From a bacterium (GTDB lineage Bacteria; Zhuqueibacterota; Zhuqueibacteria; Oceanimicrobiales; Oceanimicrobiaceae), in NCBI GenBank assembly GCA_046757165.1, contig JBHHXT010000056.1:1-25831 (forward strand): 25,831 nucleotides of DNA, given 5' to 3'. Shown here piece by piece: positions 2,841 through 25,831 of this stretch (positions are counted from its first letter, which is position 1; every line of letters begins with the position of its first letter). A program made the translations under genes and the position numbers. Below the pieces are notes generated by a model that saw only the letters and a list, made by a program, of their open reading frames with translations, searched no databases and was not told where the DNA came from.

Positions 2841-3887
2841 TTGGAGCTACGATGCAAACTGATTGTTGCTTATGTTGCTTATCTTTTTTTACCATGCATA
2901 CTACATGCCCAATTCCCCAAGACACTGGATCTGGCAAACTTTGGTGAGGATGTGAGAATTGTATATCATACCGAAGATGATAAAGACGGTTTTGGCAAGG
3001 ATCTCGCTACGGGTGACTTCAATGGTGACGGATATGATGATATTCTGGCAGGTGCATATACTTATAGCGATAGAGAGAATCTCCGCTTCAATGTCGGCAG
3101 GGCCTACATTGTTTTCGGTGGACCCGCGCTGCCCCGCATCCTTGATTTAGGTCATGCCAGGGCAAGATCAGTCCGGATAACTGGAGATGACCCCTGGGAC
3201 AATACCGGTTTTTATGTTGGCTCTGGCGACGTGAATGGTGACGGTTTTGAAGAGGCTATTGTCGGGAGCATTCAGGTTGGGAGTGTGACCACGCCTGGCA
3301 AATTGTATGTCGTCTATGGCCGGCAAAGTTGGCCCGAGGAATTCGATCTCAATACAAACGGAGGAGCCGTTGAAGGAATTACTCGGATTACCGGAAAACT
3401 GCCCGGCGATATTCTTACGACCCGCTACACCGACCACCGCGATCGTATCGTGCTGCAATTCGAGGGGGAGCCGGATGTGCGAGTGCTGCCATTGAACCTG
3501 GACGAGGTTCCACAGGTCATGACCGGGCCGGAATGGCGGTTGGACATCGGCATCGCGTGGCGACCCCTGAAAAATCTGATGGCTGCGCTGGACCTTTATT
3601 CCGACGGCGGGTTCGGCGCCGGCCTGGAGTGGGAGCCGCTGAAAGGAATCTATCTGCGCCAGGGCATCAACCGCAAAAGCGACGGCCTGTTCAAGCCGGA
3701 AAAACTGTTTTCGCTGGGGCATGGCCTCGGCGTGCGCTATGGCGCAGCCCGCTTCGACCTGACGTTCTACCACAGCCAGGGCCGGGATATCGCAACAGCG
3801 GCCATTCCAAATGGTCAGCTTCACATCCGGCCAAAAATCAGTGGCGACCGCATCTGGATGATGACGGTGTTGTTTTCTGTGAAGTAA
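2841..3887 (+). CDS. FG-GAP repeat protein fused to an outer-membrane beta-strand C-terminal fragment (probable chimera)
   Basis: TTG start with an AGGAGG RBS, signal peptide, and two FG-GAP repeats (GDFNGDGYDDIL..A, GDVNGDGFEE, GRAYIVFG, GKLYVVYG). After about 3418 the protein switches to amphipathic beta-strands (GAGLEW, GLGVRY...FDLTF). Confidence 0.7.
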   Translation: MELRCKLIVAYVAYLFLPCILHAQFPKTLDLANFGEDVRIVYHTEDDKDGFGKDLATGDFNGDGYDDILAGAYTYSDRENLRFNVGRAYIVFGGPALPRILDLGHARARSVRITGDDPWDNTGFYVGSGDVNGDGFEEAIVGSIQVGSVTTPGKLYVVYGRQSWPEEFDLNTNGGAVEGITRITGKLPGDILTTRYTDHRDRIVLQFEGEPDVRVLPLNLDEVPQVMTGPEWRLDIGIAWRPLKNLMAALDLYSDGGFGAGLEWEPLKGIYLRQGINRKSDGLFKPEKLFSLGHGLGVRYGAARFDLTFYHSQGRDIATAAIPNGQLHIRPKISGDRIWMMTVLFSVK

Positions 3888-3908: not shown

Positions 3909-3992
3909 TCACACAAAGACCCCAAGAGCACGAAGCTTTCAAACGAAAGCTATCTCTTATTTGTTCTTTGCGTACTTTGCGGCTTTGCGTGA
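3909..3992. repeat. Inverted pair of 8-9-nt tandem arrays (CGCAAAG / CTTTGCG) between convergent genes
   Basis: TCACACAAAG ACCCCAAG AGCACGAAG (3909-3935), a 30-nt loop, then CTTTGCGTA CTTTGCGG CTTTGCGTGA (3966-3992). Confidence 0.8.
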
Positions 3993-4043: not shown

Positions 4044-6695
4044 TTATTTCAAGACGACCATCTTACGGCTGATGCGACTGCCCTGAGTCATGAGCTGATA
4101 CAGATAAAGCCCCGACGAAATTCCCTCACCTCGATTGTCTGTGCCGTCCCAGAAAGCCTGATGCCACCCTTTTGTCTGCCGTCCGCTGACCAGCCGCCGC
4201 ACTTGCTGACCCAGAGCGTTGTAGATGACCAGGTCGACTTGCTGATCTTGTTCGAGAAAGTAGGGGATGCGGGTCTCGAGGTTGAAGGGGTTCGGGTAGT
4301 TTTGCTCCAGGGCTACCGTTTCCGGAATCACAGGGCCCGCTTCTGTGACAAGGGTCGCCTCCGGCTGCGGCAAACGGCTTTCATAAAAGCCATTGCCATG
4401 TGTGGCGACCCGCAGCACCCGGTTTGAGCGCGAAATGGACAGGTCCATTGCAAAGACGGCGTCCGGCAACCCCTGCATGTGTACCTGCCAGGTTCGCCCG
4501 CCATCGGGGGAAAAGTAAACACCGATATCGGTTCCGACGAAAATCTGCTGCGGAAAATCCGGGTCGATCGTCACGGCCCAGGCCGGGGCATCCGGCAGCC
4601 CGGCACCGATATCTTGCCAGGTGGCGCCGCCATCGTCCGTGCGAAAGAGATGCGAGAGACCGAAACCGCCAAAGGTCACCAGAACCGTCCGGTCGTTGTT
4701 CGGGTCGACCGCCAAGTCGGTGGGAAACCGGTCGGGCAAATCACCTGTGATCGTCACCCATGTCTCACCGCCGGTTGTGGTTTTGAACAGGTTTCCCCGG
4801 CTCTCGCCCGGGCTGGTCGCGCCATAAACAACATCGACATCCTGGTGGGAGCAGCCAAGGGCTATCAACGGGTTGGCATCCAGCGGCTGGCCGCCGTTGG
4901 TGTCTCTCCAGGTCACGCCACCGTTCGTCGACTTGTGCACCCTGTTGCTGCCAGCGTAGAGCGTCTGGTTGTCCACCGGGCTCAAAACAAATGGCGCGAT
5001 GAAATTCGTTTGCATAAGATCGCGCGGCGGCGTAATGTCGATGAAGCTGTTGTTGCGGCCACGGTTCAGACTCATCGAGATTTGTAGCCACTGCAACGAA
5101 ACGTAGATGACGTCGTTGTTGCTCTGGTTGATGGCTGTCCACGCGCCATCCCCGCCAAAGAGGCGCCTCCAGGATTCGCTGCCTTCGTAAGCGGCGCTGT
5201 TGTTGTCCTGCATCCCCCCGACGGTGAACAGAGAATCGGTGTCCGAGCTCGAGACGCCGTTGTAAAACTGCGTGGTCTGGTACCCCCGGTTCAGGTTGCG
5301 AACCGTCCGACCACCGTCCTCGGACCGGAACACGCCGCCATCGTTGGCGAAGTAGATAATCTCCGGATTGGTCGGGTGAAAGACGATGTTGTGAAAGTCC
5401 GCCCAGGAGGAGGTGAGGCCCAGCGCCACCGTCTCGGGATGGGGCCGAAAGAGCCCCTCGCCGCTCACAAACGCCAGGTTATGTCCGCCGTCTGTGGAGC
5501 GAACCGGCGTGAACGGCTGCCCGGCTGCCCAGACGATATCGGGGTTGGTTGGGTCCACCACCACGTCGTGCGCGTACCAGCCTTGAATACTCGAATAATC
5601 GAGGGTCGAGACCACCGACCAGGTATCGCCGCCATCGCTGGTCTTGACCACCCAGGTGCCCGTGGCGCGATTGAAGACCGAGCCGTTGGAGAAGCCGATG
5701 CTGGCGTAGACGATCTCGGGCGAGGAGAGCGAAATAGAAAGCCGCGCCTTGCCATTAAAGGAGGGTACGCCCGGGATGACCATTTGCTGCCACGTTTGAC
5801 CGCTGTCTTGCGTGCGGTAAAGACCGTGTCCCGCACTCCGCATGCCGCCACAGGCGACGAAGACAACGGTGGTATCCTGCGGGTTGACCGCGATGTCGGT
5901 GGCCATGACCACATCGTGCACTTTTTGCCAGCTCACGCCGGCGTCGACCGATTTGAAGGTCCCTTCGGTGGTGGCGGCCCAGACCGTGGCCGACCGCAGC
6001 GGGTTGATGCGCACCATCTGCACACCGCGTTTCTGGTTGACCAGCCAATCGAGACTTTTGCGCCAGGTTTGACCACCGTCAGACGTTTTCAGGATACCAA
6101 TGCCGTAGCTGCCACGGGTCAGCCGCTCGCCCGTGATGCCGGGATGGGTTTCTTCGCTGCCATAGACTTCGCCGGTGCCGATGTAGATGGTGTTGGAATC
6201 GTCCGGCGCAATGGCGATGGCGCTGACGCCGAGCACTGGAAAACCCGTCGTGACCCTGTGCCACGCCCCGGCGCCGACGCCGCCCGTCGTGCTGCGCCAG
6301 AGACCGCCGCTGGCCGAGCCCGCGTAAACCGTATTTGGATTTTGCGGATTGAGGGCAATGGCCAGCGTTCTCCCACCGATGTTGTGCGGACCGATGGGGT
6401 GCCAGGCCTCCAGCTCGACTTGCGCCGTTTGCAGTCTGGCCGCCGCGGCTTTTGTTTTGGAAAAATCAAACGCGGGCGCAATGCCGGCATCCGGTATCGT
6501 TGGCTCAGGGTAAGCGCGCGCGCTGGTGATGAACCGGAGCGCGCGGAGCGCCCCGGAACTGGTTTTATGGTTGTATTGTTTTATTGTTGTATTGCTGGAT
6601 GGTTGGCCAGCCTCACCACCCGAACCTGACCATTTAACAATGAAACAATAGAACAATAAAACAATAAAACAATAAAACAATAAGAATAGTCTCAC
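4044..6695 (-). CDS. Secreted BNR/Asp-box (VPS10/YCF48-like) beta-propeller protein with a C-terminal T9SS-type/FlgD-Ig sorting domain (about 883 aa)
   Basis: W..IGP.NIGGRT, many S.DGG.TW Asp-boxes, ATHGNG, and a C-terminal LEQNYPNPFN...WDG.D..G..SSGLY.Y.L...KMVVLK. The start is re-called at GTG 6695, which overlaps the upstream TGA (GTGA) and is preceded by GGGGGGTAGGT. Confidence 0.85.
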   Translation of the reverse strand: MRLFLLFYCFIVLLFYCFIVKWSGSGGEAGQPSSNTTIKQYNHKTSSGALRALRFITSARAYPEPTIPDAGIAPAFDFSKTKAAAARLQTAQVELEAWHPIGPHNIGGRTLAIALNPQNPNTVYAGSASGGLWRSTTGGVGAGAWHRVTTGFPVLGVSAIAIAPDDSNTIYIGTGEVYGSEETHPGITGERLTRGSYGIGILKTSDGGQTWRKSLDWLVNQKRGVQMVRINPLRSATVWAATTEGTFKSVDAGVSWQKVHDVVMATDIAVNPQDTTVVFVACGGMRSAGHGLYRTQDSGQTWQQMVIPGVPSFNGKARLSISLSSPEIVYASIGFSNGSVFNRATGTWVVKTSDGGDTWSVVSTLDYSSIQGWYAHDVVVDPTNPDIVWAAGQPFTPVRSTDGGHNLAFVSGEGLFRPHPETVALGLTSSWADFHNIVFHPTNPEIIYFANDGGVFRSEDGGRTVRNLNRGYQTTQFYNGVSSSDTDSLFTVGGMQDNNSAAYEGSESWRRLFGGDGAWTAINQSNNDVIYVSLQWLQISMSLNRGRNNSFIDITPPRDLMQTNFIAPFVLSPVDNQTLYAGSNRVHKSTNGGVTWRDTNGGQPLDANPLIALGCSHQDVDVVYGATSPGESRGNLFKTTTGGETWVTITGDLPDRFPTDLAVDPNNDRTVLVTFGGFGLSHLFRTDDGGATWQDIGAGLPDAPAWAVTIDPDFPQQIFVGTDIGVYFSPDGGRTWQVHMQGLPDAVFAMDLSISRSNRVLRVATHGNGFYESRLPQPEATLVTEAGPVIPETVALEQNYPNPFNLETRIPYFLEQDQQVDLVIYNALGQQVRRLVSGRQTKGWHQAFWDGTDNRGEGISSGLYLYQLMTQGSRISRKMVVLK
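6564..6684. repeat. Inverted pair of 8-nt tandem arrays (ACAATAAA consensus) inside the 5' end of the beta-propeller gene
   Basis: 5 units TTTATGGT TGTATTGT TTTATTGT TGTATTGC TGGATGGT (6564-6603), a 25-nt loop, then 7 units ACCATTTA ACAATGAA ACAATAGA ACAATAAA x3 ACAATAAG (6629-6684). Confidence 0.9.
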
Positions 6696-8308
6696 GCCTG
6701 ACCTACCCCCCCATACCTGATTCCCGCCAAACAAGCCAGATCGCGCTTGAAGGTCGTAATATCATCCTGACAGAACTGGTTGAGATGCGTATGCCCGCAA
6801 GCCCGCGCCATGATTTGCATCAATTGCACCGTGGCCTTGAAGAAATTCTCCAGGCGGCGGGCGGAAAGTTCGATGTCGAGTCGCCGGCGCAGATGCGCCT
6901 TCTGGGTCGCGATGCCCACCGGGCAGTTGTTGGTGTGGCAAGCGCGCATCGCCTGGCAGCCGATGGCCTGAATCGCGGCATTGGAGACGGCGATGGCGTC
7001 CGCACCGAGCGCCAGCGCTTTGATGAAATCCGGTGCCGTGCGCAACCCGCCCGTGATGATCAAGGTGATGCCCTGGCATCCGCGTTTGTCGAGATGCCGG
7101 CGTGCGCGGGCAAGCGCCGGGATGGTCGGCACGGAAATGTTGTCACGAAACAGGGCCGGCGCCGCGCCGGTGCCGCCACCGCGGCCGTCCAGGATGATGT
7201 AATCCACCCCCACTTCTATGGCCGCGTCGAGGTCCTCTTCGATGTGGTTCGCAGACAATTTAAAGCCGATAGGAATGCCTCCGGTCACATCCCGCACCTC
7301 GTTGGCAAAATTCTTGAAATCGGTCAGGCAGCCAAAATCGACAAATCTGGGCGGCGAGATAGCCGGTTCTCCCTCGGGGATGCCGCGTACTTGACTGATC
7401 TTGCCTGTGTTCTTGTGTCCGGGCAAGTGGCCGCCGGTCCCGGTTTTGGCACCCTGACCGCCCTTGAAATGAAAGGCCTGCACCTTTTTCGTCAACTCCA
7501 TTTTGAATCCGAATTTGGCAGAGGCGAGCTCGTACAAATAGCGACTGTTCTCTGCCTGCTCCTCCGGCAGCATGCCGCCTTCGCCCGAACAGATGCCCGT
7601 GCCCGCTTTTTCAGCGCCGCGCGCCAGCGCAACCTTGGCTTCTTCAGAAAGCGAGCCGAAGCTCATATCAGATACAAACAGCGGCAGGCTTAATTCCAGC
7701 GGTTTTCCGGCGTTTGGCCCGATAATCACCCTTGTATCGACCTCCACTTCCTCGAGGTGCGGCAAACGCGCCAGTTGCGCCGGCAAGATCTGAATGTCGT
7801 CCCACTTCGGCAGGAGGTGGGTGCCGACCCCCATGGAGGCAACCGCACCGTGATGCCCGTGCTTCGACAATCCGTACTTTGCCAGGTGATGGATCTCAGC
7901 AGTCTTCGGCTCTTCCTCCGCCGGATGCGTCGCCTCGAACGCCCCCAAATATTCCTGCCGGTGGACAAGCTCCGGGTGCTCCTGTTCATAGGCCGCAATC
8001 TCCGCCTCATCGACCCAGACCTGCCCGTCCTCAACCACCGCCGTAAACTTGTGCAGCACCTCATGGTTGTCGTATTCGCTGATGCCGCTATCGAAACGGT
8101 AGTCCCAGTCGTGCACGCCACAGATGATGTTGTGGCCGTCGACATGGCCATCCGCCATGAGCGCGCCGCGGTGCAAACAACGGCCGTACAACACGGACAC
8201 CTGGTCATCGTAGCGGATGATCACCAGGTCGGTATTCCGGACCAGGGCGTGGGCGGGCTGGCGGTCTTTTAGATCCTTCCATCTATGGATCGAGATCCTA
8301 TTTTGCAT
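6692..8308 (-). CDS. Rieske [2Fe-2S] + FMN-binding glutamate synthase family protein (538 aa)
   Basis: N-terminal Rieske CLH...CGVH; FMN domain motifs MSFGSLS, SGEGG, QGAK...GGHLPG, DGRGGGTG; [3Fe-4S] motif C...RACHTNNCPVGIATQ; AGGAG RBS. Confidence 0.92.
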   Translation of the reverse strand: MQNRISIHRWKDLKDRQPAHALVRNTDLVIIRYDDQVSVLYGRCLHRGALMADGHVDGHNIICGVHDWDYRFDSGISEYDNHEVLHKFTAVVEDGQVWVDEAEIAAYEQEHPELVHRQEYLGAFEATHPAEEEPKTAEIHHLAKYGLSKHGHHGAVASMGVGTHLLPKWDDIQILPAQLARLPHLEEVEVDTRVIIGPNAGKPLELSLPLFVSDMSFGSLSEEAKVALARGAEKAGTGICSGEGGMLPEEQAENSRYLYELASAKFGFKMELTKKVQAFHFKGGQGAKTGTGGHLPGHKNTGKISQVRGIPEGEPAISPPRFVDFGCLTDFKNFANEVRDVTGGIPIGFKLSANHIEEDLDAAIEVGVDYIILDGRGGGTGAAPALFRDNISVPTIPALARARRHLDKRGCQGITLIITGGLRTAPDFIKALALGADAIAVSNAAIQAIGCQAMRACHTNNCPVGIATQKAHLRRRLDIELSARRLENFFKATVQLMQIMARACGHTHLNQFCQDDITTFKRDLACLAGIRYGGVGQA

Positions 8309-12876: not shown

Positions 12877-12918
12877 ACATCTCACGTTTGGCGTCTCACG
12901 TTCGACATTTCACATTTC
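12877..12918. repeat. Degenerate heptamer tandem array (ACRTYTC-like, 6 units)
   Basis: ACATCTC ACGTTTG GCGTCTC ACGTTCG ACATTTC ACATTTC, about 40 nt upstream of the subtilase start. Confidence 0.7.
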
Positions 12919-14857: not shown

Positions 14858-14944
14858 TTCGGTGTCTTTCGGTGACTTCGGTGCCCTTCGGTGGGAAAAT
14901 CTTAAGACCACCGAAAATCACCGAAGTCGCCGAAGGTCACTGAA
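14858..14944. repeat. Inverted pair of 9/10-nt tandem arrays (TTCGGTG / CACCGAA), 4 units each
   Basis: TTCGGTGTCT TTCGGTGAC TTCGGTGCCC TTCGGTGG, a 13-nt loop, then CCACCGAA AATCACCGAA GTCGCCGAA GGTCACTGAA; the spacing is exactly mirrored. Confidence 0.9.
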
Positions 14945-21339: not shown

Positions 21340-21372
21340 TTGTTAAGACTCCCTCTCTATCAGGTCGCCATT

Positions 21373-24300
21373 ATGAACGATCAATTCTTCGAACACCCCG
21401 TCCTCAACTCTCCCTACGAATATCCCTGCCGGCATTGGGAGCTGGATAAGCAGGGGCAACCGACCCAGCAGATCATTGACAAACGCCGGCATGTTGCGTT
21501 CATCACCCCGATCCCGAAGCCGAGAAAAAGAAAACGCACAGCGGACCAGCAACAAATCGTCTTTGACGAGGGCGAGGCCCTGTCGACAGCCGCGCAGCAG
21601 TACGACCCCACGCCGGTAATCAATGCCCTGCGCAAGCATGTCGACCAGTGGCGCAGCCTGTCGAATCCGGCGGACTGGCGGGTCACACCCGAAACCGCGC
21701 GTTTGCTGCAGCACTGGCGGCATTTTCATTTCAACAGCTTCCGGCCGTTTTTCTGCCAGATCGAGGCAGTAGAAACCCTCATTTGGCTGACCGAGGTGGC
21801 GCCACAAATCGGCAAAGCAGGAAAGCAATTTCTCGAGCATCTGGCCGATGCCAACAACGAGGCCAATCCGGGACTGGCGCGGCTGGCGCTCAAGCTGGCC
21901 ACCGGCGCCGGCAAGACCACGGTGATGGCCATGATCATCGCCTGGCAGACCATCAACGCCGTGCGCCGGCCCACCAGCAGCCGGTTTACACGAGGGTTCC
22001 TGGTGGTCACGCCGGGCCTGACAATTAAAGACCGCCTGCGGGTGTTGCAGCCCAACGATCCGGACAGCTACTACCAGAGCTGCGAGCTGGTGCCCGGCGG
22101 CCTGCAGGAGGATCTGAAGCGCGCCAAAATCGTCATCACCAATTACCACGCTTTCAAGCTGCGGGAGCGGCTGGAGCTTTCCAAAGGCGGGCGCATGCTG
22201 CTGCAAGGACGCGGCCCGGCTCTGAACACGCTTGAAACCGAAGGCCAGATGCTGCAAAGAGTCATGCCCGGACTCATGGGCATAAAAAACATCCTGGTGC
22301 TGAACGATGAGGCGCACCACTGCTACCGCGCCAAACCCGATGATGACGGCGAAACCCTGCGCGGGGACGAGAGGAAAGAAGCCGAGCGCAACAACGAAGC
22401 GGCACGCCTGTGGATCAGCGGTCTGGAGATCGTCGAGCGCAAGCTCGGCCTCAGCCGGGTGGTCGATCTCTCGGCCACGCCGTTTTTCCTGCGCGGCTCC
22501 GGTTATGCCGAAGGCACGCTGTTCCCCTGGACGATGAGTGATTTTTCCCTGATGGACGCCATCGAGTGCGGCATCGTCAAGCTGCCGCGGGTGCCGGTGG
22601 CTGACAACATCCCCGGGGAGGACATGCCCAGGTATCGCAATCTCTGGGAGCACATCCGCACGCGCATGCCTAAGAAAGGCCGCGGCAAATCCGGCAAGCT
22701 GGACCCGCTGAGCCTGCCGGTGGAGCTGCAGACCGCGCTGGAAGCGCTCTACGGGCATTATGAAAAAACCTTCGCGCTGTGGCAAGAGAGCGGCATCCGG
22801 GAGCCGCCGTGTTTCATCATCGTTTGCAACAACACCTCGACCTCCAAACTGGTGTATGATTATGTGTCGGGATTCTACCGCGAGAAGGAAGACGGTTCTA
22901 CCATCCTGGAAAACGGCCGGCTGCCGCTGTTTCGCAATTTCGATGAGCACGGCAATCCGCTGGCACGGCCCAGTACGCTGCTGATAGACAGCGAGCAGCT
23001 CGAATCCGGCGAGGCGCTGGACAGCAACTTTCGCAAGATGGCAGCAGACGAGATCGAGCGCTTCCGGCGCGAGATCATCGAAAGAACGGGCGACCGGCGG
23101 CAGGCCGAGACGCTGACCGACCAGGATTTGCTGCGCGAGGTCATGAACACCGTGGGCAAAAAGGACCGGCTGGGCGAGTCCATCCGCTGCGTGGTCTCGG
23201 TGTCGATGCTCACTGAGGGATGGGATTGCCAGACGGTGACCCATGTGCTGGGCGTGCGCGCGTTTGGCACGCAATTGCTGTGCGAGCAGGTCATCGGCCG
23301 GGCGCTGCGCCGGCAGTCTTATGAGCTGAATGAGGACAGTTTGTTCGAGGTGGAATACGCCGACGTGCTGGGCATTCCGTTTGATTTCACGGCAAAGCCG
23401 GTGGTGGCGCCGCCGCAGCCGCCGCGCGAAGTCATCCAGGTCAAAGCCGTGCGCCCGGAGCGCGACCACCTGGAAATCCGTTTCCCGCGGGTGCAGGGCT
23501 ACCGGGTCGAGCTGCCCGAGGAGCGGCTGACGGCCGAATTCAACGACGATTCCGTGCTCGTGCTCAGCCCGGAGCTGGTGGGCCCGTCGATTACACGAAA
23601 CGCCGGCATCATCGGCGAGGGGGTGGACCTGGATTTAAAGCATCTCGGCGACCTGCGGCGCTCAACGCTGATTTATCATGTCACCACGCGGCTGCTGTAC
23701 ACCAAATGGCGCGATCCGGGCGAGGAGCCGAAGCTGCATTTGTTCGGTCAGCTCAAGCGCATTACCCGGCAGTGGCTGGACACCTGTCTGGTCTGCAAGG
23801 GCGGCACCCACCCGGCGCAGCTCATGTACCAGGAGCTGGCCGATATGGCCTGCGAACGCATCACCGCGGGCATCACCCGGGCCCTGATCGGAAAAAAGCC
23901 GATCAAGGCGGTGCTCGATCCCTACAATCCCACCGGCTCGACCGCGCATGTGAATTTCAGCACTTCGAAACGCAACAGATGGGAGACGGATTCGCGCAAG
24001 TGCCACATCAACTGGGTAATTTTAGACAGCGACTGGGAAGCCGAACTCTGCCGTGTGGTCGAATCGCACCCGCGGGTTCGGGCCTACGTGAAAAACCATG
24101 GTTTGGGGCTGGAAGTCCCGTATCGCTACGGCTCGGCGACGCGCAAGTACCTGCCCGATTTTATCGTGCAGGTGGATGATGGCCGGGATGATCCGCTGCA
24201 CCTGGTCATCGAGATCAAGGGCTACCGCCGCGAGGATGCCAAGGAGAAGAAAGCCACGATGGAAGAATACTGGGTGCCCGGGGTGAACAATCTAGTAGGC

Positions 24301-24393
24301 CAGTACGGTCGCTGGGCCTTTGCAGAGTTCACCGAAGTCTACGAGATCGAAAGTAAGTTCAATAAGATGATCGACGATTTCTTGCAGAGGTAG
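21373..24393 (+). CDS. res: Type III restriction endonuclease Res subunit-like SF2 helicase/nuclease (BPTD_3080-like, 1006 aa)
   Basis: FFCQIEAVET, Walker A ATGAGKT, Walker B DEAHH, SATP, MLTEGWD, EQVIGRALRR, and a C-terminal nuclease motif YLPDF...IEIKG. ATG 21373 is preferred over TTG 21340. Confidence 0.92.
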   Translation: MNDQFFEHPVLNSPYEYPCRHWELDKQGQPTQQIIDKRRHVAFITPIPKPRKRKRTADQQQIVFDEGEALSTAAQQYDPTPVINALRKHVDQWRSLSNPADWRVTPETARLLQHWRHFHFNSFRPFFCQIEAVETLIWLTEVAPQIGKAGKQFLEHLADANNEANPGLARLALKLATGAGKTTVMAMIIAWQTINAVRRPTSSRFTRGFLVVTPGLTIKDRLRVLQPNDPDSYYQSCELVPGGLQEDLKRAKIVITNYHAFKLRERLELSKGGRMLLQGRGPALNTLETEGQMLQRVMPGLMGIKNILVLNDEAHHCYRAKPDDDGETLRGDERKEAERNNEAARLWISGLEIVERKLGLSRVVDLSATPFFLRGSGYAEGTLFPWTMSDFSLMDAIECGIVKLPRVPVADNIPGEDMPRYRNLWEHIRTRMPKKGRGKSGKLDPLSLPVELQTALEALYGHYEKTFALWQESGIREPPCFIIVCNNTSTSKLVYDYVSGFYREKEDGSTILENGRLPLFRNFDEHGNPLARPSTLLIDSEQLESGEALDSNFRKMAADEIERFRREIIERTGDRRQAETLTDQDLLREVMNTVGKKDRLGESIRCVVSVSMLTEGWDCQTVTHVLGVRAFGTQLLCEQVIGRALRRQSYELNEDSLFEVEYADVLGIPFDFTAKPVVAPPQPPREVIQVKAVRPERDHLEIRFPRVQGYRVELPEERLTAEFNDDSVLVLSPELVGPSITRNAGIIGEGVDLDLKHLGDLRRSTLIYHVTTRLLYTKWRDPGEEPKLHLFGQLKRITRQWLDTCLVCKGGTHPAQLMYQELADMACERITAGITRALIGKKPIKAVLDPYNPTGSTAHVNFSTSKRNRWETDSRKCHINWVILDSDWEAELCRVVESHPRVRAYVKNHGLGLEVPYRYGSATRKYLPDFIVQVDDGRDDPLHLVIEIKGYRREDAKEKKATMEEYWVPGVNNLVGQYGRWAFAEFTEVYEIESKFNKMIDDFLQR

Positions 24394-24395
24394 CC

Positions 24396-25037
24396 ATGTC
24401 AGAGGAAGAAGGGTTGTTTCCAAAACACGGCGGCTACCGGAAGTTGAAAAGCTTTCAAATCGCACAGTTGGTATACGATGTGACGGTGCGTTTCTGTGAC
24501 CGCTATATCGACAAACGCAGCCGCACGCACGATCAGATGGTGCAGGCGGCCCGCAGCGGGGTACAAAACATCGCAGAAGGCAGCCAGGTCTCCGGCACCT
24601 CGAAGAAAATGGAGATGAAGCTGACCAACGTGGCCCGGGCCAGCCTGGAAGAGCTGCGGCTGGATTATGAGGATTTTTTGCGGCAGCGGGGGTTGGAGAT
24701 GTGGGGGCCGAATGATCCAGCTCTGGTTCGATTTAAAAAGAAACGCTGCTCAAGTTTGGAAGAGGTACAAGCTTGGGTGGAAGACGAACACCGACGAGCA
24801 CGGACAAACACTGACTCTATAAAGGATCATCAAAAGGCAAAGTCCGTGTCTGCCGATGAAAGTCCGAGCCAGAACAGATTATATTCAGAGATTGCGGCTA
24901 ATGGAGCCCTTTCTCTTCTGAATATTTGCTGCTACTTTTTAGACCGCCAGCTCGCCGCACAGGCCCGCGCCTTTGAAGAGGAAGGCGGCTTCACAGAACG
25001 GCTCTATAAACACCGCAAACGCCGCCGGGGTGGATGA
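24396..25037 (+). CDS. Four helix bundle protein (S23-IVP/bAvd-like) with four-helix-bundle suffix domain (213 aa)
   Basis: GGYRKLKSFQ.A...YD.T..FC, RT.DQMVQAARSG.QNIAEGS, VARASLEEL.LDYEDFLRQRG, and the suffix LDRQL......F..EGGFTERLY..R. Confidence 0.9.
   Translation: MSEEEGLFPKHGGYRKLKSFQIAQLVYDVTVRFCDRYIDKRSRTHDQMVQAARSGVQNIAEGSQVSGTSKKMEMKLTNVARASLEELRLDYEDFLRQRGLEMWGPNDPALVRFKKKRCSSLEEVQAWVEDEHRRARTNTDSIKDHQKAKSVSADESPSQNRLYSEIAANGALSLLNICCYFLDRQLAAQARAFEEEGGFTERLYKHRKRRRGG
24785..24870. repeat. In-frame inverted pair of 10-nt tandem arrays (CACGGAC / GTCCGTG) inside the four-helix-bundle gene
   Basis: CGAACACCGA CGAGCACGGA CAAACACTGA C, a 26-nt loop, then GTCCGTGTCT GCCGATGAAA GTCCGAGCC. 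Confidence 0.7.
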
Positions 25038-25072
25038 ATAGAAACGATGAAGAAGCACTGAGGGAAAGAAAC

Positions 25073-25831
25073 ATGGCCAGAAAAAAACAAACGAAACCCA
25101 AATCCATCGAAGCGCTGCAGCACAGAGACGCCAAACGCACAAACATCCCCACGGCAGAGTACCAGTCCGTGCTGCGGGAGGAGGACAAAAGCCCGATCCG
25201 GGTGGCGTACGAGCGCCGCAACCGGGACCTGGACCCGCAGTTGGTGTGGCGCGGCAAGGATATGCTGGACTGGTCCGACCTGGTGGTGCCGGCGCCGCCG
25301 CTGTATATTCAGGAGAAGATTCATCCGAAGGTGCTGATCGATGATTTAGTGAGGAGTGGCCAGTGGTTAGTGGCGAGTGGTGAGAAAGCGGCACCGGAAA
25401 ATACACAGATAGACTTGTTCTCTGACTTCAACGGCCTGCCCGACGAGGCGGCGCGCACCGAGTTTTATCAGCACGAGGCCAACTGGAGCAACCGCATGAT
25501 CCTGGGTGACTCGCTGCAGGTCATGGCTTCCCTGGCGGAGCGCGAGGGGCTGCGCGGCAAGGTGCAGTGCATCTACATCGACCCGCCGTACGGCATCAAG
25601 TTCAACTCCAACTTCCAGTGGAGCACCACCAGCCGCGATGTGAAGGACGGCAAGGCCGAGCACATCACCCGGGAGCCGGAGCAGGTGAAGGCGTTCAGGG
25701 ACACCTGGCGCGACGGCATCCACTCCTATTTGACCTACCTGCGCGACCGCCTGACCGTGGCGCGGGACCTGCTGACCGAGTCTGGCTCCATTTTTGTGCA
25801 GATCGGGGATGAGAATGTGCACCGGGTGCGG
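25073..25831 (+). CDS. mod: Site-specific adenine DNA methyltransferase, type III Mod-like, beta class (3' truncated by the window)
   Basis: Absent from the ORF track because it has no stop in the window. My translation: MARKKQTKPK...DPQLVWRGKD...NRMILGDSLQVM...VQCIYIDPPYGIKFNSNFQ...SYLTYLRDRL...GSIFVQIGDENVHRVR; DPPY is catalytic motif IV. Confidence 0.93.
   Translation, partial: MARKKQTKPKSIEALQHRDAKRTNIPTAEYQSVLREEDKSPIRVAYERRNRDLDPQLVWRGKDMLDWSDLVVPAPPLYIQEKIHPKVLIDDLVRSGQWLVASGEKAAPENTQIDLFSDFNGLPDEAARTEFYQHEANWSNRMILGDSLQVMASLAEREGLRGKVQCIYIDPPYGIKFNSNFQWSTTSRDVKDGKAEHITREPEQVKAFRDTWRDGIHSYLTYLRDRLTVARDLLTESGSIFVQIGDENVHRVR
25348..25382. repeat. In-frame heptamer tandem array (AGTGGnn x5) in mod
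   Basis: AGTGAGG AGTGGCC AGTGGTT AGTGGCG AGTGGTG, encoding (L)VRSGQWLVASG(E). Confidence 0.8.

Follow-up and report, generated by a model that had tools for sequence, protein, structure and literature searches.

A tandem octanucleotide repeat hairpin at the signal-peptide position of a bacterial beta-propeller gene

In the window, i.e., the whole 25,831-nt stretch of DNA that was analysed, a 133-bp repeat hairpin built of 8-nt units forms the 5′ end of a minus-strand gene for a beta-propeller protein and stands where homologues carry their signal peptide. Together with a gene from another genus, this makes two cases in which a repeat hairpin of a common type has replaced a whole signal; the function of the replacement we infer. 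The features of the propeller locus, in the order of transcription, are:

6692–8308, minus strand: upstream gene, 538 aa, with a Rieske domain and an FMN glutamate-synthase domain (Pfam)
6701–6712, minus strand: G-rich Shine-Dalgarno-like (SD-like) site near the 3′ end of the upstream reading frame, within its last codons (−10.8 kcal/mol for the duplex with a generic anti-SD)
6692–6695, minus strand: GTGA stop/start overlap, proposed coupled start (seen in the sequence)
6636–6690, minus strand: T-rich arm of six 8-nt units and a degenerate end, encoding residues 3–20, the hydrophobic stretch
6654–6656, minus strand: TTG start of the database gene call P0002 (870 aa), with no SD (+1.5) and 7 hydrophobic residues left
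6605–6635, minus strand: hairpin loop, encoding residues 21–30, with about 16 nt more than other loops of the family
6558–6604, minus strand: A-rich arm of 5.5 units, encoding a polar linker (residues 31–46), with short microhomology to native codons
4044–6557, minus strand: gene body from S47, a BNR/sortilin-type beta-propeller (Pfam)
about 4044–4298, minus strand: FlgD-Ig/T9SS-type C-terminal domain (Pfam, FlgD_ig above cut-off)

A sequence-only reading of this DNA had described a hairpin of inverted 8-nt repeats between positions 6564 and 6695, and the structure was recovered by computation: TRF detected the 8-nt unit in 6.0 copies at 6636–6683 and the inverted unit in 5.5 copies at 6562–6605, the two arms pair at 79–84%, and the RNA fold of 6540–6720 reached −56.8 kcal/mol (z −3.5), a value that none of 200 shuffles equalled. 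The element lies within the limits proposed, except that its arms extend slightly past the left one, to 6558. The three perfect unit copies are present as consecutive identical units in the T-rich arm and are the only ones there, and the described AT-rich segment in a gene of about 60% GC corresponds to a GC content of 33% in the element vs 61% in the gene body. The stable stem begins about 17 nt past the proposed GTG start. Both ends of the loop match, by eye, loop words in other family copies, so that the loop is mostly element; a loop that is a remnant of the native linker was ruled out by these family words and by the first unit being in the register of the arm. No flanking target-site duplication was seen by eye, and neither the promoter and terminator scan nor Rfam returned anything at the element, the four weak Rfam matches all being far below the gathering score. 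The best of the other BLAST matches to the element span a single arm, or the two arms together at about 70%, and include no near-identical second copy.

The minus-strand GTG at 6695–6693 overlaps the TGA of the upstream gene at 6694–6692 and opens an 883-aa frame, the N-terminus of which reads MRLF-LLFYCFIV-LLFYCFIV-KWSGSGGEAG-QPSSNTTIKQYNHK-TS-SGAL. The overlap of this GTG with the upstream stop, from which coupling had been proposed, is confirmed; at −4 it is the commonest co-directional gene spacing (183 of 3216 pairs, crude gene calls). A strong SD-like site precedes the GTG, as strong as or stronger than the site of 96% of the 2695 ATG genes in the crude calls. The anti-SD motif behind these duplex energies is a generic one. 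G-rich SD-like flanks are common beside family copies when inspected by eye, and the flank at GTG 6695 may be incidental. Gene calls for the source genome came from a crude hexamer model that often skips signal peptides. The end position of the upstream gene is that of four of the seven homologues examined, and the propeller genes of two relatives, G016 and G007, also begin with GTG-AGR, so that GTG-AGA here may be the preserved native start, although the match is partly repeat sequence. In-frame ATG, GTG or TTG codons occur at residues −12, 1, 6, 14 and then 154, leaving no other usable start before residue 154, and the first ATG is residue 227, deep in the propeller as had been claimed.

Among the six frames of the element, only the gene's own is open. 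For 19 other hairpins of the family, 30 of 114 frames were open (26%), or 30 of 342 placements once the register is required; at about 1 in 4 to 1 in 11, an open frame by chance is not improbable. Within the A-rich arm, two in-frame triplets fall where a stop is usual for the family (in 62% of 250 units), and in this gene both are non-stop variants. The duplicated octapeptide to which the earlier reading had drawn attention is present; it follows from the arithmetic of six 8-nt units in any frame and is not separate evidence. The inverted arm does encode the polar stretch described before SGAL, ending at residue 46, and the frameshift predicted upon gain or loss of one unit follows from the sequence as well: adding or removing one or two units would truncate the frame at 17–40 aa, while a change of three units would keep it.

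Residue R2 followed by 18 uncharged residues forms a basic n-region and a hydrophobic core. The Kyte-Doolittle value of the 18-mer is 2.93, vs a homologue median of 2.27 and inside the homologue range, and the n-region charge of +1, vs a median of +2, is among the lowest values of the 116 homologues. The linker of 27 aa is matched or exceeded in 1% of homologues, and as many Cys residues as the two in the encoded leader are present in 3% of them. Small residues at 23–30, noted by eye and encoded by the loop, could act as a cleavage region. The composition of the family accounts for part of this picture. In 96 arrays of at least four units, T-rich frames were open in 237 of 288 instances with a mean Kyte-Doolittle value of 2.1, and A-rich frames in 101 of 288 with a mean of −1.5. 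Since the T-rich arm is hydrophobic in any frame, a captured copy resembles a signal, and the resemblance alone proves nothing about selection; since the T-rich arm always comes first, a capture at the 5′ end reads as hydrophobic and then polar. In yeast, Kaiser and co-workers reportedly observed in 1987 that many unrelated hydrophobic sequences are able to act as signals. The hairpin-encoded N-terminus probably does the job of an export signal now.

The alignment with homologues that the earlier reading had suggested places the repeat at their signal-peptide position. Of 119 homologues listed, 116 could be measured; their N-termini are hydrophobic, and the RxYP motif is preceded by a median of 51 residues in them, vs 59 here. 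Two relatives, G004 and G016, have the same upstream gene ahead of the propeller gene, with spacers of 43 nt and about 100 nt, and their propeller genes carry ordinary signal peptides and no repeat. DNA and protein similarity to relatives starts at S47-G48-A49, exactly where the A-rich arm ends, and a short microhomology of K-T codons is common to G016 and the last unit of the element. Relative to these syntenic relatives, the alignments indicate that the element took over about 40 codons, comprising the native spacer, the signal peptide and the linker. The suggestion that a repeat replaced or was exapted as the export signal stands in respect of the replacement, with an h-region in the homologue range and a second case; it is refined in that ordinary signals at the same place in homologues imply that export is ancestral and that an older signal was replaced, by a member of a common intergenic repeat family. 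The C-terminal domain scored 21.5 bits against Por_Secre_tail, below the cut-off of 27, and homologues of SprA (SprA_N) and PorV, both over cut-off, are encoded in the source genome.

The gene body does not have the appearance of the pseudogene disrupted by an insertion for which the sequence-only reading had allowed. At 202 conserved columns it departs from the consensus with 2 real mismatches, vs a homologue median of 4, and it is 65–68% identical to its nearest relatives, which are 64% identical to each other, in a set of relatives that is drawn from outside the genus. On this comparison the body shows no decay and no sign of relaxed selection. The protein cluster of the propeller gene has one member, from one contig. 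The label of a homologue suggests that the host probably belongs to candidate division KSB1. A metagenome scan returned 11 loci, none above 67% identity. In a separate listing, four DNA data sets came up, all from one study and possibly of the source sample, and no RNA data set.

The repeat family is multicopy and mainly intergenic. A three-unit core pattern gave 123 matches in 47 clusters of the source genome, vs 1–2 in each of three shuffles, and two of the 47 clusters are degenerate, which leaves about 45 dispersed 8-nt-unit elements. Based on crude gene calls, 26 of the 47 begin within 30 nt after a stop codon, and four overlap gene calls, namely the propeller gene, a gene overlapped at its C-terminal end next to a contig edge, and two degenerate matches. 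All 20 complete hairpins, 52–124 nt long, run from a T-rich arm through a variable loop to an A-rich arm; the hairpin script searched the T-first order, and no reversed pair was seen by eye among the core matches. Copies differ in unit number and loop. The hairpin pattern occurs in 5 of 61 related genomes, all from the same family, and a reversed control never matched. A GTDB scan returned at least 120 loci in Bacteroidota, Patescibacteria, Ignavibacteria, a cyanobacterium and others. Among the GTDB matches listed, 80 loci had full flanks and 14 loci had an in-frame stretch of at least 100 codons, with no clear third signal replacement and one ambiguous locus, L199; at L199:787–1530 there is a lipoprotein-like signal of words resembling the T-rich arm, which may be chance. 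A search with the N-terminal peptide in proteins of 485–1546 aa yielded 8 candidates and two matches, i.e., the protein itself and a eukaryote-type RasGAP with a C-terminal repeat run. No link of the family to four-helix-bundle or GxxExxY genes emerged from their 6 and 3 matches in the source genome, which lie on contigs devoid of 8-nt clusters, with the exception of the contig of the window, where such a gene is located about 18 kb from the element. At another locus (L183:1101–1511), a four-helix-bundle (23S_rRNA_IVP) gene follows directly after an element.

Among the matches listed, we screened 130 arrays from five genomes, and 23 had a long open frame through the array. Twenty-one of the 23 were set aside by eye, as they had their own ATG after the repeat, were shadow frames or were false repeat matches. 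Both captures that were retained concern secreted proteins, the propeller protein and the following gene:

L095:103–1209 (G013:C783), minus strand: second, independent case, a Peripla_BP_6 protein with the same 8-nt repeat, in another genus

Its layout consists of a stop codon, the strong SD AAGGAG, 7 nt, a TTG inside the first T-rich unit, and a hydrophobic stretch of 12 residues; the loop and the second arm, both degenerate, come next, and then the P-I-E-V-V-K of the Peripla_BP_6 protein. Among genome homologues the nearest is G006 (60%), whose native leader of 57 residues ends in the same P-I-E-V-V-K, and 90 of 114 measurable sequences of the Peripla_BP_6 family have a hydrophobic N-terminus. 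Microhomology is present at the junction, just before the conserved domain. This second case lacks a positively charged n-region and starts with TTG, and its database call, P0124, starts after the signal.

Repeats of related type were also observed in frame elsewhere. In the source genome, a 7-nt-unit hairpin (L277, G000:C76:14280–14540) spans a coupled ATGA, its purine arm lying in the reading frame that terminates at that stop and its pyrimidine arm starting the signal of a SCO1/SenC protein; in the G009 orthologue (L283), a basic n-region resembling the repeat appears to take its place. Another 7-nt repeat hairpin (L278, G000:C479, about 2080–2115) lies in a loop of a Ser/Thr kinase, the length of which equals that of repeat-free paralogues, and four paralogues (C365, C418, C494 and C497) carry similar residues; the unchanged length suggests overwriting in place. 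Both arms of a third 7-nt hairpin (L279, G000:C285:5550–5634) are in frame within the first 37 residues of an ORF for an iron-containing alcohol dehydrogenase. The 8-nt hairpin type itself is found in frame, at the same site, in the 5′–3′ exonucleases of two Patescibacteria (L179 and L210).

The explanation that we regard as likely is that a member of the repeat family replaced the 5′ end of the propeller gene, with an open frame and a coupled GTGA restart, and that selection would have kept the allele since the T-rich arm makes a usable Sec signal or anchor. A paired 8-nt hairpin of the kind usually located just past stop codons would have taken the place of spacer, signal and linker, either by a single insertion-deletion at microhomology or by stepwise overwriting. 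We infer that ribosomes finishing the upstream gene would restart at the overlapping GTG 6695, that translation of the T-rich arm would give a hydrophobic core of 18 residues and that of the loop and A-rich arm a polar linker, and that the protein would thereby retain a Sec signal or signal-anchor through which a T9SS-type route could be reached.

The same arrangement could result from recent neutral damage, in which the element landed past the upstream stop and deleted the 5′ end; the open frame and the GTG would then be accidental, and what is left would be a young, undecayed pseudogene. This reading is supported by the frequency with which clusters begin directly after stops (26 of 47), by the 26% of element frames that are open by chance and by T-rich arms that are hydrophobic regardless, and the single-member, single-contig protein cluster agrees with it as well; however, frame, start and SD coincide in the propeller gene, the body is free of decay, both captures among the 130 arrays strike secreted proteins, and in both cases found the junction falls at the first conserved residue, an argument that is post hoc. 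We judge neutral damage unlikely. A dedicated regulatory device, either an on/off switch by unit slippage, as in Neisseria opa (PMC3960869), or a hairpin that tunes coupled translation or mRNA processing, would make use of the sensitivity of the frame to one or two units, its tolerance of three, and the stable stem shortly after the start. Against it, only three units are identical, the same hairpins stand at about 45 sites beside unrelated genes, and relatives have the same gene pair without the hairpin; we hold such a device to be improbable, and phase variation by gain or loss of units is only a possibility. A join of two repeat copies during assembly could be suspected from an assembly fragmented into 531 contigs, several of which end in these repeats. 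Nevertheless, the flanking genes are adjacent also in G004 and G016, and the 133-bp element, the loop of which is unique, has no near-identical counterpart elsewhere, which makes an artefact of this kind very improbable.

Beyond the replacement at the propeller gene, it may be that the hairpins are written by an undescribed process which overwrites permissive stretches such as gene ends, signal peptides and surface loops, in place of a plain insertion, and which would be a recurring source of export signals across bacterial phyla. We offer this wider idea tentatively and consider it rather doubtful. It draws on the two N-terminal replacements with microhomology junctions, the equal-length kinase loop and the exonuclease copies of Patescibacteria; under such overwriting, a hydrophobic-coding T-rich arm that always comes first would be a ready-made source of export signals.

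Several known systems resemble parts of this arrangement. Geobacter metallireducens has class 1 paired tandem octanucleotide sites with the consensus GTTGCTYN (Aklujkar et al. 2009, PMC2700814), and that report describes multicopy sequences even within genes. Like those sites, the present family consists of tandem 8-nt units in opposite-strand pairs with variable spacing and many copies, and its unit word, ATTGYTNN, is similar and not identical, as compared by consensus word only. Unlike the present case, the Geobacter sites are read as binding sites of a regulator or IHF in the passages of PMC2700814 on them, which give no signal-peptide role. Rickettsia palindromic elements are dispersed palindromes of about 150 bp that lie in frame in unrelated genes (as summarised in PMC10969869); according to that summary they add a conserved peptide to metabolic proteins, whereas here a low-complexity tandem hairpin replaces a signal peptide. 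In contrast to both these elements and MITEs, the present element is without conserved sequence and length and without a target-site duplication that could be seen. The opa genes of Neisseria carry CTCTT coding repeats in the leader peptide, as described in PMC3960869, and share with the hairpin a pyrimidine-rich repeat that has a period not a multiple of three and is translated in a leader; in that account, opa is a phase switch of a gene family with a measured rate, while the hairpin has an inverted partner, a genome-wide intergenic family and three identical units. For Enterobacterales, insertion and deletion of whole signals are documented (PMC5952966), and the survey's passages on such N-termini report no transposable elements near them and judge gain by the prepending of random residues unlikely; here a repeat would be the signal donor, a donor type absent from those passages. 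The cases in the relevant parts of PMC2996958 and PMC2996986 are less close to the hairpin. A literature search that covered few subscription papers turned up no account of a signal peptide being replaced by a repeat hairpin.

If the natural fusion of hairpin-encoded N-terminus and propeller is exported, the gene would be a clean natural case in which non-coding repeat DNA replaces an entire signal peptide, and the polarity of the arms together with their codon content would be a simple reason for its working. Repetitive DNA would then be recyclable into a working part of a protein. For annotation, the database calls P0002 and P0124 both appear to start too late, which hides the putative signal. 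The two cases also give a handle on a very widespread and barely described class of repeats.

The window contains further repeats and unusual genes. A 10-nt-unit repeat at 14858–14944 forms a clear hairpin, a 14/7-nt-unit repeat is located at 12877–12913, an 8-nt-unit repeat at 3966–3990, and a 7-nt-unit repeat at 25355–25381 is in frame inside a DNA methyltransferase-like ORF. Positions 21340–25831 hold type III restriction (ResIII), four-helix-bundle (24396–25037) and methyltransferase-like genes in a row. At the contig end, an identical 55-nt direct repeat occupies positions 1–55 and 131–185. The ORF at 2841–3887 combines an FG-GAP repeat N-terminus with an apparently unrelated barrel-like C-terminus and is possibly a fusion or a deletion remnant.
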